11,964 bases of DNA. Source: Escherichia coli (GTDB lineage Bacteria; Pseudomonadota; Gammaproteobacteria; Enterobacterales; Enterobacteriaceae). Location of the stretch: NCBI RefSeq assembly GCF_003334255.1, contig NZ_QOWU01000082.1. One strand, given 5' to 3'. Within the stretch, counting starts at the first letter, position 1. Every line of letters starts with the position of its first letter. Position numbers and translations under genes: made by a program. Below, piece after piece: positions 1,843-8,104 of this stretch. Under the pieces are notes generated by a model, which ran no database searches, had not been told where the DNA came from, and worked only from the letters and a program-made list of their open reading frames with translations.

Positions 1843-2535
1843 CTAGTGATAACCACGCGCGGTCATAAAATCCGTAATCGCTTTTTCTGCATCAACCAAC
1901 ACCTGTTCCAGTGGCTGATTGGCATCGATATCAACCAGTTGTGCACCACCAAAGGTTAACTGTGGCGTTATGGCAATCTTCCTCGCCAGCGATTCCCGTT
2001 TATGGTCGGGTTTACGTGCACAGGCAACTTCAAGGTCAACATTGAGTTTGATGACCAGATCAGGCTTATGGCTCGCCATCCAGTGAAACGCTTTACGTTC
2101 CTGGCTTGCCAGCCATGAGACAAAACGACCACCTTCAACGTTAGGTGGGAACACCGTACCATCGTAAGCGCCAGGAATTTGGTCCTGAGGATAACGGTCG
2201 GTTAGAACAATTAACCCGCGACGACGACAGGCAAGCATATGACGAAAGCGCAGTAAGCGACGGGCGACAAACGCTGTAATTACCAGCGCCGGAACTGGTC
2301 CAGGCAATTTTTTTGCTGTTTTCACCTGATTTCGTTCAATTGTTTTATGTAAGGATTTTCCCATCAACGGTAATTTTGTCACTGCACGACCGACATTTCC
2401 GGCCTGTTTTCCTAAATGAACTCTTTCGGCAGCACCATATTTTTCGACAACGGTAATAAGATGTTCACACACCGTTGACTTGCCTGAACCATCGCTACCA
2501 ATAACGGCAATTAATGGAGGTGTTATTGACTGCAT
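1843..2535 (-). CDS. yghT: Thymidylate-kinase-like P-loop NTPase / putative ATP-binding kinase (YghT-like)
   Basis: 230-aa ORF with ATG start and AAGGA Shine-Dalgarno 8 nt upstream; TAG stop. Walker [17 protein letters not shown] motif, and ARKPDH / TPQLTF motifs shared with the two paralogs downstream. Confidence 0.85.
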
Positions 2536-2708
2536 GAATATATCCTTTAATTTAAATATCCATTAAAAATATTTATTTGGTTAATATGTTTTTATGAAAG
2601 CGTAATTCAGGTCAATGTCACAATTAACCATTGTCACAATAAGGTTGAACGGATATTCTGAGCACGGACCACGTAATATTCAATACATTATTTACTGCCG
2701 GGTTTTTC
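2536..2708. promoter_or_regulatory. AT-rich divergent intergenic region between yghT (minus) and yghS (plus); holds candidate promoters and a direct-repeat operator candidate
   Basis: 173-bp AT-rich spacer between divergently oriented starts. Direct repeat TGTCACAAT at 2616-2624 and 2632-2640; the second copy overlaps a possible -35 TTGTCA (2631-2636) with a -10-like TATTCT (2654-2659). Confidence 0.4.
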
Positions 2709-3422
2709 GTGAATCAACGTAATATGTCAATAATTAATTCCACGCCAGTGCGTGTTATTGCCATTGTAGGATGTGATGGTTCAGGTAAATCGACCCTCAC
2801 GGCAAGCCTGGTAAATGAACTGGCAGCAAGAATGCCAACAGAACACATTTATCTCGGGCAATCGTCCGGGCGAATTGGCGAATGGATTTCACAGCTCCCT
2901 GTTATTGGCGCACCTTTTGGGCGTTATCTGCGAAGTAAAGCGGCACATGTGCACGAAAAGCCCTCAACACCGCCTGGCAATATTACTGCACTGGTTATCT
3001 ATCTGCTTTCCTGCTGGCGGGCGTACAAGTTTCGCAAAATGTTGTGTAAAAGCCAGCAAGGCTTTCTGCTCATCACCGACCGCTACCCGCAGGTTGAAGT
3101 GCCGGGGTTTCGCTTTGATGGCCCGCAATTGGCAAAAACCACGGGCGGTAACGGTTGGATAAAAATGTTAAGGCAGCGCGAGCTGAAGCTGTACCAATGG
3201 ATGGCATCTTATTTGCCCGTATTGTTGATTCGTCTTGGCATTGATGAACAAACCGCGTTTGCGCGTAAACCTGACCACCAACTGGCAGCGTTACAGGAAA
3301 AAATCGCCGTTACGCCGCAACTGACATTCAATGGCGCAAAGATCCTTGAACTGGATGGGCGACACCCCGCCGATGAAATTCTGCAAGCGTCACTACGCGC
3401 AATTCACGCCGCGCTTTCCTGA
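2709..3422 (+). CDS. yghS: Thymidylate-kinase-like P-loop NTPase / putative ATP-binding kinase (YghS-like)
   Basis: 237-aa ORF from the GTG at 2709; an in-frame ATG at 2724 is an alternative start, and neither has a strong Shine-Dalgarno. Walker A IVGCDGSGKST, DRYPQ, ARKPDH, TPQLTF. TGA stop at 3420-3422. Confidence 0.82.
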   Translation: MNQRNMSIINSTPVRVIAIVGCDGSGKSTLTASLVNELAARMPTEHIYLGQSSGRIGEWISQLPVIGAPFGRYLRSKAAHVHEKPSTPPGNITALVIYLLSCWRAYKFRKMLCKSQQGFLLITDRYPQVEVPGFRFDGPQLAKTTGGNGWIKMLRQRELKLYQWMASYLPVLLIRLGIDEQTAFARKPDHQLAALQEKIAVTPQLTFNGAKILELDGRHPADEILQASLRAIHAALS

Positions 3423-3453
3423 TCACCAAAATGGATAGGGGATGATTTAACGA

Positions 3454-4212
3454 ATGGATGCACTACAAACTCAAACTGTTAATAGTACAACCGCGCCGCA
3501 GCCCAACTACATTCCGGGGCTGATTGCGGTGGTCGGGTGTGATGGCACCGGTAAATCCACACTGACCACCGACCTGGTGAAATCGCTGCAACAACACTGG
3601 CAAACCGAGCGGCGCTATCTGGGGCTGCTCTCCGGCGAAGACGGCGACAAAATCAAACGATTGCCGTTGGTTGGCGTCTGGCTGGAACGGCGACTGGCGG
3701 CCAAATCCTCGAAAACCCAAAGCATGAAAACCAAATCTCCGGCGCTATGGGCGGCGGTGATTATGTACTGCTTCTCGCTGCGAAGAATGGCGAATCTACG
3801 CAAGGTTCAGCGACTGGCGCAAAGTGGCGTTCTGGTGGTCAGCGATCGCTTCCCGCAGGCTGAAATTTCGGGCTTTTATTATGATGGACCGGGGATTGGC
3901 GTCGAACGTGCGACCGGGAAAATCAGCATGTTTCTGGCGCAGCGCGAACGGCGTTTATACCAACAAATGGCGCAATATCGCCCGGAATTAATTATTCGCC
4001 TGGGCATTGATATTGAGACTGCCATCTCCCGCAAGCCTGACCATGACTATGCCGAGCTGCAGGACAAAATCGGTGTCATGTCGAAGATTGGCTATAACGG
4101 CACAAAAATTCTTGAGATTGATTCCAGAGCGCCCTACAGCGAAGTGCTGGAACAGGCACAGAAGGCGGTTTCTCTGGTTGCCATCGTTTCTGACCGCCGA
4201 AGTTTAACTTAA
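3454..4212 (+). CDS. yghR: Thymidylate-kinase-like P-loop NTPase / putative ATP-binding kinase (YghR-like)
   Basis: 252-aa ORF with ATG start and AGGGGA about 12 nt upstream. Walker A VVGCDGTGKST, DRFPQ, SRKPDH. Paralogous to the two preceding kinase-like ORFs. Confidence 0.87.
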   Translation: MDALQTQTVNSTTAPQPNYIPGLIAVVGCDGTGKSTLTTDLVKSLQQHWQTERRYLGLLSGEDGDKIKRLPLVGVWLERRLAAKSSKTQSMKTKSPALWAAVIMYCFSLRRMANLRKVQRLAQSGVLVVSDRFPQAEISGFYYDGPGIGVERATGKISMFLAQRERRLYQQMAQYRPELIIRLGIDIETAISRKPDHDYAELQDKIGVMSKIGYNGTKILEIDSRAPYSEVLEQAQKAVSLVAIVSDRRSLT

Positions 4213-4257: not shown

Positions 4258-5607
4258 TTGGCGGGTTTTAACATCAAACATTGGTTTGCAGATGGCGCGT
4301 TTCGCACCATTATTCGCAATAGCGCCTGGTTAGGCTCCAGTAATGTCGTGAGCGCCTTGCTGGGTCTGTTGGCGCTCTCGTGTGCCGGTAAAGGGATGAC
4401 GCCCGCCATGTTTGGCGTACTGGTGATTGTGCAATCGTACGCCAAGTCGATCAGCGATTTTATTAAGTTTCAGACATGGCAACTGGTGGTTCAGTACGGA
4501 ACACCAGCATTAACCAACAATAATCCGCAGCAATTCCGCAATGTCGTCTCATTTTCCTTCTCGCTGGATATCGTCAGCGGCGCGGTGGCGATTGTCGGTG
4601 GCATTGCCTTACTGCCATTCCTTTCCCATTCATTAGGTCTGGATGACCAAAGTTTTTGGCTGGCAGCGCTCTATTGCACGCTCATTCCTTCAATGGCTTC
4701 CTCCACGCCGACCGGCATTCTGCGTGCGGTAGATCGCTTCGATTTAATTGCTGTACAGCAGGCGACGAAACCTTTTCTGCGCGCAGCGGGGAGCGTCGTA
4801 GCCTGGTATTTTGACTTTGGTTTTGCGGGTTTTGTTATTGCCTGGTACGTGTCGAATCTGGTTGGCGGCACCATGTACTGGTGGTTTGCCGCGCGCGAAT
4901 TACGCCGCCGAAATATCCATAACGCCTTCAAATTGAATCTGTTTGAGTCTGCCCGATACATTAAAGGCGCGTGGAGTTTTGTCTGGTCAACCAACATTGC
5001 CCACTCCATCTGGTCGGCGCGTAACTCGTGCAGCACAGTGTTGGTGGGGATCGTGTTAGGACCCGCTGCCGCCGGGTTATTTAAAATCGCCATGACATTC
5101 TTCGACGCCGCCGGAACGCCAGCGGGTTTGCTGGGTAAAAGTTTTTACCCAGAGGTGATGCGTTTAGATCCGCGCACCACCAGACCGTGGTTGTTAGGTG
5201 TGAAGTCCGGTTTACTGGCGGGCGGAATCGGTATTCTGGTGGCGCTCGCGGTGTTGATCGTCGGCAAGCCGCTCATTTCGCTGGTGTTTGGCGTTAAGTA
5301 TCTCGAAGCGTATGACCTGATTCAGGTGATGCTGGGCGCAATTGTGATTTCGATGCTGGGCTTCCCTCAGGAGTCATTGCTATTGATGGCGGGAAAACAG
5401 CGCGCTTTTCTCGTGGCGCAAACCATCGCCTCAATCGGCTACATCGTATTGCTGTTCATGTTCTGTCATCTGTTTGGTGTGCTGGGAGCAGCGTTTGCTT
5501 ACTTCGGTGGGCAATGTCTGGACGTGGCGCTCTCGTTAATTCCAACCTTAAAGGCATTTTTTCAGCGCCATTCCTTGCTTTATAACGCAGCCGGAGAGAA
5601 ATCCTGA
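4258..5607 (+). CDS. yghQ: MOP-superfamily (Wzx/polysaccharide-biosynthesis-type) inner-membrane flippase-like protein (YghQ-like)
   Basis: 449-aa ORF, hydrophobic throughout with many predicted TM helices. The only start that keeps the first TM segment is the TTG at 4258 (AAGG 10 nt upstream; in-frame TAA at 4243-4245; first in-frame ATG not until codon 47). The stop overlaps the next start (TGATG). Confidence 0.8.
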   Translation: MAGFNIKHWFADGAFRTIIRNSAWLGSSNVVSALLGLLALSCAGKGMTPAMFGVLVIVQSYAKSISDFIKFQTWQLVVQYGTPALTNNNPQQFRNVVSFSFSLDIVSGAVAIVGGIALLPFLSHSLGLDDQSFWLAALYCTLIPSMASSTPTGILRAVDRFDLIAVQQATKPFLRAAGSVVAWYFDFGFAGFVIAWYVSNLVGGTMYWWFAARELRRRNIHNAFKLNLFESARYIKGAWSFVWSTNIAHSIWSARNSCSTVLVGIVLGPAAAGLFKIAMTFFDAAGTPAGLLGKSFYPEVMRLDPRTTRPWLLGVKSGLLAGGIGILVALAVLIVGKPLISLVFGVKYLEAYDLIQVMLGAIVISMLGFPQESLLLMAGKQRAFLVAQTIASIGYIVLLFMFCHLFGVLGAAFAYFGGQCLDVALSLIPTLKAFFQRHSLLYNAAGEKS

Positions 5608-6431
5608 TGATGAGAAAATATTTCCCGCTTGAGGCGAGCGAGCGTCTATTTGTTGCGATTGAAGAAGATGATGTCGTTGATGCACAGGTTAGTTTGCCGC
5701 CGACTATTGCACTAAGTTGTACCACCGAAATCATTCATGATAATTACGCGTTATGCCTGCAATTCTGGCTCAATGGCGTTGATCGTCAGGAGTTACTGCG
5801 TTTAGTTCGCAAACAAGCCAAAGGCGATGAGCTGACTGCTGATGAGCGCAAACAATTTAAATACATGCGAGCGCGCTACAAGCACCTGCGTTTTGCGCAA
5901 CGGCTGTATTTAAAGAAGCATCAGGCCGGATTTTTATTCGGCAAAACGACCGTTTTTCTGGGGCGTTTTCAGGACGGCTTTCGTAACGGTAAGAAAAATA
6001 TTGTGTCGTATTACGGCAACCTGTTACGGATTTATTTAAGCTCTCCGGTCTGGTCGTTGGTGAACTATTCATTACGCCATAGCCAGTTAGAAAGCGTAAG
6101 CAGTTTTATTGCCTATCGGCAAAAGCAAATGCATACCCTGAAAGAGATTATTGCCAAACCGCGACTAACCGGTAGGGAATTTCATGATGTGCGAAAAATC
6201 ATCAGCCAGCAGGTTTCTTATTACGACACCTTAAGATCGCTTGATCCTGAAAATAAAGAGGCGTTACAGATATCCCGCTTCCTCGCCGCCATTAATGGCC
6301 TGATGGGAGATAAACACGACGACATGGTGGCGGATGATATGGAAAACCGCCAGTCGTATGATGCACCGGTGGCGCTGGATAGCGATATTCGTCAGCGCTT
6401 AGAGCTGCTGATTTCGCGTTTTCCGCTATAG
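5607..6431 (+). CDS. Hypothetical soluble protein, basic and probably helical; no recognisable catalytic motif
   Basis: 274-aa ORF starting with tandem ATG ATG, GGAGAG Shine-Dalgarno 8 nt upstream, and a 1-nt overlap with the yghQ stop. No signal peptide or TM segment seen. Confidence 0.75.
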   Translation: MMRKYFPLEASERLFVAIEEDDVVDAQVSLPPTIALSCTTEIIHDNYALCLQFWLNGVDRQELLRLVRKQAKGDELTADERKQFKYMRARYKHLRFAQRLYLKKHQAGFLFGKTTVFLGRFQDGFRNGKKNIVSYYGNLLRIYLSSPVWSLVNYSLRHSQLESVSSFIAYRQKQMHTLKEIIAKPRLTGREFHDVRKIISQQVSYYDTLRSLDPENKEALQISRFLAAINGLMGDKHDDMVADDMENRQSYDAPVALDSDIRQRLELLISRFPL

Positions 6432-6439
6432 CCGGAGCA

Positions 6440-7003
6440 ATGATGTCATCTCGTTTGATTATTGCGTTGATTATCATGCTCTTAGCCCCGGGTGTGCAGG
6501 CACACAATTTCGTCACTGGCAAAACGGTTACCCCTGTTTATATCCAGGAAGGCGGCGAGCTGCTTCTGAATAGCGACGACGAAATTCACTACCAAAAGTG
6601 GAACAGCACACAATTAGCGGGAAAAGTCCGCATTATTCAGTATATCGCCGGGCGTAAGTCGGCGAAGAAAAAGAACTCACTGTTAATTAAAGCGGTTGAA
6701 GCGGCAAACTTTCCGCAGGATCGTTTTCAGCCCACCACCATTGTGAACACCGATGATGCCATCTTTGGTACTGGCTATTTTGTTGTTGGCAAAATCGAAA
6801 AAAATAAACGCCGCTATCCGTGGGCGCAATTCGTTATTGACGGCAATGGACAGGGACGCGTTGCCTGGCGCTTGCCGGAGCAGAGTTCAACCATTCTGGT
6901 GCTGAATAAAGCCGGGCAAATTCAGTGGGCAAAGGACGGCAGCCTGACGCCGGAAGAGGTAGATCATGTCATTGCGTTGGCGCAGAAACTGATCAATGAA
7001 TAA
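6440..7003 (+). CDS. Secreted/periplasmic protein of unknown function with a Sec signal peptide
   Basis: 187-aa ORF. N-terminus MMSSRLIIALIIMLLAPGVQA|HN has an n-region, hydrophobic core and an AxA-type cleavage site. GGAG lies 2 nt before the first ATG (6440) and 5 nt before the second (6443), so the true start may be 6443. Confidence 0.8.
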   Translation: MMSSRLIIALIIMLLAPGVQAHNFVTGKTVTPVYIQEGGELLLNSDDEIHYQKWNSTQLAGKVRIIQYIAGRKSAKKKNSLLIKAVEAANFPQDRFQPTTIVNTDDAIFGTGYFVVGKIEKNKRRYPWAQFVIDGNGQGRVAWRLPEQSSTILVLNKAGQIQWAKDGSLTPEEVDHVIALAQKLINE

Positions 7004-7033: not shown

Positions 7034-8104
7034 ATGAAGCTGGTTGAACACTACATCATGCGTGGTACGCGCCGTCTGGTGCTGATTATCGTCGGTTTTC
7101 TGATCTTTATTTTCGCCAGCTACTCCGCACAGCGTTATCTGACCGAAGCGGCAAATGGGACATTAGCTCTTGATGTTGTGCTGGATATCGTTTTCTACAA
7201 AGTACTGATTGCACTGGAGATGTTGTTACCTGTTGGTCTGTATGTGTCAGTTGGCGTGACGCTAGGGCAGATGTATACCGACTCGGAAATTACCGCTATC
7301 TCTGCGGCGGGGGGCAGTCCGGGACGCTTGTACAAAGCCGTTCTTTATCTGGCGATACCGCTAAGTATTTTTGTCACCCTTCTGTCGATGTATGGTCGTC
7401 CGTGGGCTTATGCGCAGATTTATCAACTGGAGCAGCAGTCGCAGTCGGAGCTGGATGTTCGCCAGTTGCGGGCAAAGAAATTTAACACTAACGATAACGG
7501 ACGAATGATCCTTTCGCAGACGGTTGATCAGGATAATAATCGCCTGACTGACGCGCTGATTTATACTTCTACTGCCAATCGAACCCGCATTTTCCGCGCC
7601 CGTTCGGTTGATGTGGTTGACCCATCACCCGAGAAACCGACCGTTATGTTGCACAACGGCACTGCCTATCTTATCGATCATCAGGGGCGTGATGACAACG
7701 AACAGATCTACCGTAATCTGCAATTACATCTGAATCCGCTGGATCAAAGCCCTAACGTCAAACGCAAAGCGAAATCGGTCACGGAGCTGGCGCGCTCCGT
7801 CTTTCCAGCCGATCATGCCGAACTGCAATGGCGGCAAAGCCGTGGCCTGACCGCATTGTTGATGGCGCTGCTGGCCATTTCATTAAGTCGGGTAAAACCG
7901 CGGCAAGGGCGATTTTCAACGTTATTGCCACTGACGTTGCTGTTTATTGCCATTTTTTATGGCGGTGACGTCTGCCGTACGCTGGTGGCTAACGGCGCGA
8001 TTCCCCTCATTCCTGGTTTGTGGTTAGTACCCGGACTCATGCTAATGGGCCTGCTGATGCTGGTCGCACGCGACTTCTCTTTGCTGCAGAAATTTTCCCG
8101 ATGA
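7034..8104 (+). CDS. LptF/LptG-family (YjgP/YjgQ) permease, paralog 1
   Basis: 356-aa ORF. N-terminus LVEHYIMRG followed by a TM helix, family-typical SEITAISAAGGSP motif after the third hydrophobic segment, a hydrophilic middle domain and C-terminal TM helices. This matches LptF/LptG architecture as I recall it. Confidence 0.85.
   Translation: MKLVEHYIMRGTRRLVLIIVGFLIFIFASYSAQRYLTEAANGTLALDVVLDIVFYKVLIALEMLLPVGLYVSVGVTLGQMYTDSEITAISAAGGSPGRLYKAVLYLAIPLSIFVTLLSMYGRPWAYAQIYQLEQQSQSELDVRQLRAKKFNTNDNGRMILSQTVDQDNNRLTDALIYTSTANRTRIFRARSVDVVDPSPEKPTVMLHNGTAYLIDHQGRDDNEQIYRNLQLHLNPLDQSPNVKRKAKSVTELARSVFPADHAELQWRQSRGLTALLMALLAISLSRVKPRQGRFSTLLPLTLLFIAIFYGGDVCRTLVANGAIPLIPGLWLVPGLMLMGLLMLVARDFSLLQKFSR

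Follow-up and report, generated by a model that had tools for sequence, protein, structure and literature searches.

What does a protein annotated only as hypothetical do when the start codon of its gene overlaps the stop codon of a flippase gene, in a region that also carries genes for dihydroceramide synthesis? This question is raised by an 11,964-nt stretch of Escherichia coli DNA (hereafter the window), in which the open reading frame (ORF) at 5607-6431 on the plus strand encodes a protein that RefSeq lists as WP_000984978.1, 'hypothetical protein', and that we refer to as the CHAD-like protein. We are confident of the anatomy: this is a real gene, its product has a CHAD-like fold, and it belongs to a module with the MOP-superfamily protein YghQ and the kinase-like paralogues YghR, YghS and YghT (YghRST). 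More tentatively, we suggest that the protein may serve the YghQ transporter as an accessory subunit that binds phosphate or polyanions, and that it may work together with the YghRST kinases on a sphingolipid head group carrying phosphate. The parts of the gene referred to below are as follows.

5592-5609, + strand: coupling junction of yghQ and the CHAD-like gene, with GGAGAG at 5592-5597, TGA at 5605-5607 and ATG at 5607-5609
5607-6431, + strand: CHAD-like coding sequence (274 amino acids, ATG start, WP_000984978.1), for a basic, all-alpha, probably cytoplasmic protein with a predicted divergent CHAD-like fold
5859-5891, + strand: first basic helix motif, K85-x2-R88-x-R90-x-K92-x2-R95 (KYMRARYKHLR), aligning with the CHAD motif HxxRxxxR
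6183-6197, + strand: second, pseudo-symmetric motif, H193-x2-R196-K197 (HDVRK), from the in-register alignment of the two halves
6306-6320, + strand: G234-x2-H237-D238 (GDKHD), equivalent to the CHAD 'LG...D' motif and, within the first half, to G119-x2-Q122-D123

The original prediction for this ORF had described a hydrophilic, basic product encoded between a MOP flippase and a secreted protein, with a start codon overlapping the yghQ stop, and all of this was borne out. The isoelectric point (pI) is 9.27, the net charge +7 and the grand average of hydropathy (GRAVY) -0.41; YghQ is encoded upstream and a YtfJ-family protein with a signal peptide downstream; and the yghQ TGA and the CHAD-like ATG share one nt, at 5607, in the sequence TGATG. 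The Shine-Dalgarno sequence GGAGAG lies ten bases 5´ of this ATG, and a further in-frame ATG is found at 5610. Hydrophobicity analysis of the 274-residue sequence detected neither a transmembrane segment nor a signal peptide (top 19-residue window, 0.82). Since no hydrophobic stretch is long enough for either, the protein is most likely located in the cytoplasm. RNA-family and repeat scans of the gene and its surroundings gave zero Rfam matches and zero repeats.

The gene is both widespread and constrained. By DNA match it is present in 4166 of 5426 complete E. coli genomes (77%), compared with 4135 for spt and 4625 for yghR, and it is under strong purifying selection, with a ratio of nonsynonymous to synonymous substitution rates (dN/dS) of 0.066-0.081 relative to three other Escherichia lineages. 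A word-indexed protein search recovered 344 relatives, full-length and ~60% identical throughout Enterobacterales. Full-length homologues in Xanthomonadales, Sphingomonadales and Acetobacteraceae are 33-50% identical, and an exhaustive profile search of 1.84 billion cluster representatives gave 289 clusters (50% identity) at E<=1e-3 and 87 at E<=1e-30. The family is thus real but small, and the label 'orphan' initially attached to the protein no longer applies: homologues span the alpha-, beta- and gammaproteobacteria, full-length and well beyond close relatives, and no clear match to an unrelated housekeeping family emerged. Scanning one genome per species with a profile from a 22-sequence alignment located 151 loci. 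The best 79 of the 151, which were analysed further, come from Enterobacterales, Xanthomonadales (Luteibacter, Rhodanobacter, Dyella), Carnimonas, Sphingomonadales, Acetobacteraceae and two metagenome-assembled genomes (MAGs).

The locus has been lost or altered in some strains. In K-12 MG1655 (NC_000913.3 3130146-3132408), IS5LO adjoins a truncated yghQ (355 amino acids) and overlaps the end of yghO, and the CHAD-like, ytfJ-like, lptF/G-like, spt, acpR, cerR and aasR genes are all deleted. IS1 insertions break the CHAD-like gene in NZ_CP100525.1 and spt in NZ_CP141736.1 and NZ_AP045828.1, indicating that the locus was inactivated independently in some E. coli lineages. The CHAD-like gene also differs from the flanking genes in G+C content (46% vs ~52%) and in dS (0.67-0.70 vs 0.22-0.53), and alleles only 90-95% identical occur in 509 E. 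coli genomes, compared with one such genome for spt. This pattern suggests allelic replacement or recombination at the CHAD-like gene. Additional copies were seen as a tandem duplicate in Luteibacter (L040, L047), as two genes in a gammaproteobacterial MAG (L077) and as two copies joined in one 564-residue protein (P0122). In Pluralibacter (L017, L023), a copy with 56-59% identity lies between genes for a BCCT transporter and an amidohydrolase, with no yghQ, kinase gene or spt within 10 kb.

An AlphaFold2 model of the E. coli protein, built on 20 homologues, is wholly helical, with 11 helices (predicted local distance difference test score (pLDDT) 90.9, predicted template modelling score (pTM) 0.87), and its best structural matches, by a clear margin, are CHAD domains. 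Foldseek against the PDB ranked the CHAD structure 6qv5 first with a weak E value (0.02). Against AFDB50, it returned homologues with template modelling (TM) scores of ~0.9 from Sphingomonas, Zymomonas, Acetobacter, Komagataeibacter and Pseudomonas veronii, which carry the UniProt name 'CHAD domain-containing protein', as well as Gluconobacter homologues without a UniProt name. A profile of 85 diverse family members found 6qv5 as the top PDB sequence (E 6.7e-4), with both motifs and both halves in register. When the 85 members were scanned one by one, 23 matched Pfam CHAD at E<=0.1 and three at E<=1e-3, and no other Pfam family recurred in more than three of them; the precomputed Pfam assignment of a fused member (P0234) includes a 'faint' CHAD match. 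The N- and C-terminal halves of the protein align with each other in the expected register (K85 with H193, R88 with R196, G119 with G234, D123 with D238), which matches the internal pseudo-twofold symmetry described for CHAD (PMC6537752).

Remote-homology search and structure prediction, the route proposed with the original prediction, succeeded through the 85-member profile and the confident helical model, whereas the E. coli sequence itself had no match in Pfam, NCBIfam or PDB, using either phmmer or a profile of its close alignment. Where no motif had been recognized at first reading, the model indicates a CHAD-like fold of two four-helix bundles with conserved basic motifs. This fold is well supported, homology to CHAD domains is likely, and we conclude that the protein belongs to a branch of the CHAD superfamily that has diverged from the rest. 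'TPR repeat protein', the label given by RAST, was rejected, given that neither the Pfam scans nor the fold searches supported it.

Comparison with known CHAD domains (PF05235), among them Ricinus RcCHAD (6qv5), Chlorobium CtCHAD (3e0s/6qv7), the Streptomyces phosin PptA (6rn5) and the C-terminal domain of E. coli YgiF (5a61), shows what has been kept and what has changed. All share the all-alpha architecture of two four-helix bundles, and the CHAD-like protein has the repeated basic-x2-R-x3-K/R ... G-x3-D pattern, the conserved histidines and the basic pI; like the 'long' CHAD proteins, it stands alone at about 270-300 residues. Over the 85 members, R88, H193 and R196 are invariant, and K92, R95, H105, G119, D123, K197, N230, M233, G234, H237 and D238 are at least 90% conserved. 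Position 85 is K or R in 93% of the members, positions 92 and 95 are K or R in at least 93% and position 197 in 96%, and the median pI is 9.3, with 81% of members above pI 8. Through 6qv5, K85, R88 and K92 align with the HxxRxxxR triad (H253/R256/R260 of CtCHAD, H29/R32/R36 of SsCHAD), of which H193 and R196 are the second-half counterparts. In CHAD domains the triad binds polyphosphate (polyP), and its mutation reduces polyP binding (PMC6537752). Because the triad aligns but its histidine is replaced by Lys85 and the 'RY' of the second half is lost, the predicted phosphate-binding surface is partly retained and partly changed. Outside the CHAD core, an acidic N-terminal extension (D21/D22, L30-P31) is conserved.

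The genomic neighbourhood was compared by searching the window proteins against the 79 loci with tblastn, with counts made over the 73 loci whose sequence extends 3 kb or more upstream of the CHAD-like gene. yghQ is nearby in 66/73 loci, in 63 of them directly upstream on the same strand, and at least one YghR/S/T paralogue is encoded nearby in 67/73. The other window genes are less constant: spt was found near the CHAD-like gene in 43/73 loci, lptF/G-like genes in 38/73 and ytfJ-like genes in 40/73, the last in Enterobacterales only. Among 67 yghQ/CHAD-like junctions, 39 have a 4-nt ATGA or GTGA overlap, nine a 1-nt overlap and six abut (54/67 in all), and overlapping or abutting pairs are kept from Escherichia to Sphingomonadales, so the translational coupling is an old, conserved feature. 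In Sphingomonadales the unit is reduced to kinase-kinase-yghQ-CHAD-like with no other window genes nearby, which marks this as the core module; the number of thymidylate-kinase-like kinases belonging to the conserved module is two or three. The module is embedded in a serine-palmitoyltransferase/ceramide cluster in two groups: in Enterobacterales, spt, acpR, cerR, aasR and cerS (yghO) all lie within 10 kb of the CHAD-like gene, and in Xanthomonadales the first four do, with cerS in most loci. The module is separate from spt in Sphingomonadales and Acetobacteraceae, whose genomes usually show this arrangement. The taxa that carry the module make sphingolipids or are expected to do so.

The partners themselves are divergent. 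YghQ is a distant MOP/PST-type protein, related in this sense to the MOP lipid flippases Wzx and MurJ, whose substrates carry a pyrophosphate-linked head group. To our knowledge, neither Wzx nor MurJ has a soluble cytoplasmic partner to which it is translationally coupled, and an obligate pairing of YghQ with the CHAD-like protein would be unusual in comparison. A profile of YghR/S/T matched thymidylate kinase 3hjn (E 3e-7) across the Walker A, DRY and lid motifs, and 11 of 20 members matched Pfam Thymidylate_kin at E<=0.1; the three are divergent thymidylate-kinase-like P-loop kinases. A PPK2-like identity found no support, as NCBIfam and the top 60 PDB matches gave thymidylate kinases and no PPK2. 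YghT, YghS and YghR (1843-4212) are 35-40% identical to one another and share the invariant motifs DRYPQ and RKPDH; an insertion of ~50 residues, part of which is hydrophobic (e.g. ALVIYLLSCW), follows the P-loop helix in each.

Some family members have a different domain organization. In the fusions detected, the partner of the CHAD-like domain is either an APH-type kinase domain, which is N-terminal, or another CHAD-like copy in tandem; both kinds occur in more distant members. N-terminal signal or lipoprotein peptides are found in the distant members P0234, P0240 (L081 8001-10931), P0182, P0216, P0226 and P0268. In two of these, a signal peptide is followed by an APH-type kinase domain (HGDLKPxNLF) and then two CHAD-like copies. 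Some of the family thus probably lies outside the cytoplasm and is fused to a kinase; the genomic contexts of P0234 and P0182 were uninformative and their clusters are unnamed. An apparent YghQ/CHAD-like fusion ORF in Sphingobium (L053) was discarded, as the yghQ frame has a stop and the usual ATGA overlap.

In the window, the module lies in a region that is not present in this form in K-12, arranged as pitB-yghT-yghS-yghR-yghQ-(CHAD-like)-ytfJ-like-lptF-like-lptG-like and followed by spt-acpR-cerR on the opposite strand. Neighbouring genes were named from the RefSeq annotation of NZ_CP025842.

1843-2535, - strand: yghT, third thymidylate-kinase-like paralogue, divergently transcribed
2631-2659: promoter-like site upstream of yghS, a consensus match only
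2709-3422, + strand: yghS, thymidylate-kinase-like P-loop kinase paralogue, probable first gene of the operon
3454-4212, + strand: yghR, thymidylate-kinase-like P-loop kinase paralogue
4258-5607, + strand: yghQ, MOP-superfamily flippase/transporter, 449 amino acids, weak match to NF007773 (MOP flippase)
6443-7003 (RefSeq start), + strand: YtfJ-family periplasmic protein with signal peptide (TIGR01626, 5e-63)
7034-8104, + strand: LptF-like permease, counterpart of Caulobacter LptF2
8101-9180, + strand: LptG-like permease, counterpart of Caulobacter LptG2
9178-9212: hairpin with a 16-bp stem including 10 G-C pairs, between the convergent lptG-like and spt genes, from a pattern scan only
9215-10387, - strand: spt, known dihydroceramide synthesis gene
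10387-10635, - strand: acpR, known dihydroceramide synthesis gene
10667-11581, - strand: cerR/epimerase-like gene, known dihydroceramide synthesis gene

The pattern scan found no noteworthy terminator-like hairpin from yghS to the end of the lptG-like gene, and the hairpin at 9178-9212 is probably a bidirectional terminator at the end of the operon. With no noteworthy internal hairpin and this one closing the unit, the seven genes from yghS through the lptG-like gene look like a single operon. The YtfJ-family gene begins 11 nt past the CHAD-like stop and has its own GGAG. It is linked to the module in Enterobacterales only, and its product could serve as a periplasmic part of the export route.

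The right half of the window corresponds to the known dihydroceramide gene set of E. coli B, comprising spt, acpR, epi/cerR, aasR and the N-acyltransferase gene yghO, and E. coli Spt favours acyl-AcpR (PMC9386255). The conserved pairing with yghQ and the position of the block inside this cluster support the earlier proposal that the CHAD-like gene belongs functionally with its neighbours. A close parallel is the Caulobacter crescentus locus CC_1152-CC_1168, which encodes ceramide synthesis, ceramide phosphoglycerate decoration, the flippase CC_1166 and LptF2/G2/C2; there as in E. coli, the same five ceramide genes are grouped with those for a putative flippase and for LptF/G paralogues (PMC9386255, PMC11324152, bioRxiv 10.64898/2026.04.12.717747). 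LptF2/G2, encoded in that sphingolipid locus, are needed for sphingolipid transport, and how sphingolipids cross the envelope is termed an open question (bioRxiv 10.64898/2026.04.12.717747). For head-group genes, Caulobacter has those of CerK, a Tam41-like protein, nucleotidyltransferases, a HIT protein and a phosphoesterase (PMC11324152, including the S1 text); E. coli has in their place the genes of YghR/S/T, the CHAD-like protein and the YtfJ-family protein. Our literature search returned no paper joining 'CHAD domain' and 'sphingolipid', no functional study of yghQ/R/S/T or Ybl138, and no mutant or lipidomic data on the CHAD-like gene. The CHAD domain itself is known; its flippase, kinase and sphingolipid-locus context is not described in the literature searched.

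How might these parts work together? The CHAD-like protein would be produced together with YghQ through the overlapping stop and start codons. K85, R88, K92 and R95, with H193, R196 and K197, would form a phosphate-binding surface, on which an anion rich in phosphate may be held at the inner membrane, on its cytoplasmic side. This ligand would most likely be a phosphorylated head group, perhaps a pyro- or oligophosphate, that YghR/S/T add to a sphingolipid or to a precursor of it. Thymidylate kinases make a phosphoanhydride from a phosphomonoester, and such a product would suit a CHAD-type binder. The CHAD-like protein could then present the ligand to YghQ, or gate YghQ, for flipping and, in E. 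coli, the adjacent LptF/G-like permeases might extract the lipid. From the features above we infer this ligand, the physical contact with YghQ and the order of the steps. Of the roles first suggested for the protein, which included a regulator, a chaperone and a novel transferase, the best fit would be a subunit of the flippase/kinase module with a role in binding or regulation or as an adaptor; the suggestion of a transferase found no support, since there is no enzyme-like fold.

Several observations weigh against this proposal. With regard to the fold, the Foldseek TM score to 6qv5 is just 0.51, and the E. coli protein falls outside formal membership of Pfam CHAD (PF05235), with no match even at E<=10. 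Profile-profile comparison with the degenerate CHAD region of YgiF was not significant (E 0.19), and that with Ricinus-type fragments was weak (E 0.023) although the motifs were in register; the Ricinus-type profile is thin, seeded from a 6qv5 segment and comprising five near-identical fragments only. With regard to the ligand, the second-half 'RY' of canonical CHAD is not retained in the alignment to 6qv5, and the specificity reported for canonical CHAD domains is for long polyP, to the exclusion of other phosphate ligands (PMC6537752). Unlike canonical CHAD genes, which associate with genes for PPK, PPX and CYTH/TTM proteins, this one has no polyP kinase, polyphosphatase or CYTH gene among its annotated window neighbours, which are instead the MOP transporter YghQ, the thymidylate-kinase-like YghR/S/T, the YtfJ-like and LptF/G-like proteins and spt. 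No natural fusion of the CHAD-like domain to YghQ or YghR/S/T was seen in the 150 best representatives. With regard to the lipid, the literature searched contains no sphingolipid product of the E. coli locus. No description of the Caulobacter locus, which does encode a flippase, includes a CHAD-like gene (PMC11324152), so the CHAD-like protein is not a general requirement for sphingolipid export. Finally, the module has genes for GT2 (ArnC-like) or GT4 glycosyltransferases as its neighbours in Acetobacter, Carnimonas and a betaproteobacterial MAG, and the transported molecule may therefore not be a sphingolipid everywhere. The betaproteobacterial MAG module also adjoins a gene whose product is homologous (E 4e-32) to the lipid A 1-phosphate O-methyltransferase LmtA; the glycosyltransferase and LmtA neighbour genes are at 12786-13700 (-) and 10810-11994 (+) of L074, 6436-7512 (-) and 12409-13194 (-) of L071 and 8814-9566 (+) of L051.

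Other readings of the same gene have to be set beside the accessory-subunit proposal. That the ORF is spurious or decaying, or is a mobile-element or defence gene unrelated to its neighbours, might be thought from its G+C content of 46%, below that of its neighbours, its higher dS and the IS1 interruption in at least one strain, but the dN/dS of 0.07, the full-length conservation in three proteobacterial classes, the conserved synteny and the confident fold prediction effectively refute this reading, to which we assign almost no probability. PADLOC gave no match and PHROGs no meaningful match, in line with the lack of repeats and Rfam elements noted above. A true polyP-binding phosin, which would use cellular polyP as phosphate donor or energy source for YghR/S/T or tie the pathway to phosphate status as a regulator, appears unlikely, if worth keeping in mind. 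The CHAD fold and basic motifs equivalent to the validated triad would be expected of such a protein, and the phosphate transporter gene pitB is adjacent in Escherichia, Citrobacter and Hafnia. The fold of thymidylate kinase is also that used by PPK2 polyP kinases. CHAD genes, moreover, typically adjoin those of phosphotransfer enzymes (PMC6537752). Yet YghR/S/T have no signature of PPK2 or another polyP enzyme in NCBIfam or among the top 60 PDB matches, the tight coupling is to a membrane transporter and not to a polyP enzyme, pitB linkage is confined to a few enterobacterial genera, and the canonical polyP surface is kept only in part.

The protein might instead have kept the CHAD architecture to bind another protein, not a phosphate ligand, and so act on YghQ, the kinases or both as a structural scaffold, as an assembly factor or as a regulator. 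Stoichiometric partners typically show conserved translational coupling, the sequence resembles canonical CHAD weakly, and the acidic N-terminal extension could be a docking element. The most conserved residues, however, are basic and histidine equivalents of CHAD ligand positions and not a hydrophobic interface, and the basic character is conserved across the family (81% of members above pI 8), so that this too seems improbable to us. Poorer still are the prospects of an enzyme or phospho-carrier, in which the near-invariant H105, D123, H193, H237, D238 and N230 would form a metal or phosphohistidine site hydrolysing or transferring the head-group phosphate: searches of NCBIfam, Pfam and PDB gave no enzyme-family match, no CHAD domain has demonstrated catalysis, and metal binding has been argued against as a general property of CHAD domains (PMC6537752). 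A bolder version of the accessory-subunit proposal is that the yghRST-yghQ-CHAD-like module builds and exports a lipid bearing a chain of phosphoanhydrides. Repeated phosphorylation of the thymidylate-kinase type might yield, for instance, a ceramide di-, tri- or oligophosphate, and the CHAD-like protein would bind the chain and hand it to the flippase. We regard this as a long shot; if true, the lipid would represent a new envelope lipid class, and the protein would be the first case of a CHAD-type domain whose ligand is linked to a lipid.

Some three in four sequenced E. coli, BL21 and many pathogens among them, carry the module, as do many Serratia, Pantoea, Erwinia, Sphingomonas and Acetobacter genomes. 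The association of the CHAD-like protein with a flippase and thymidylate-kinase-like kinases widens the known contexts of CHAD domains beyond polyP granules and polyP enzymes. The finding bears on how bacterial sphingolipids gain their head groups and cross the inner membrane, a matter called open in the Caulobacter work (bioRxiv 10.64898/2026.04.12.717747). By tying a CHAD-type fold to these partners, it also provides a testable idea for the non-ceramide half of the locus, namely that it may phosphorylate and export an anionic lipid.

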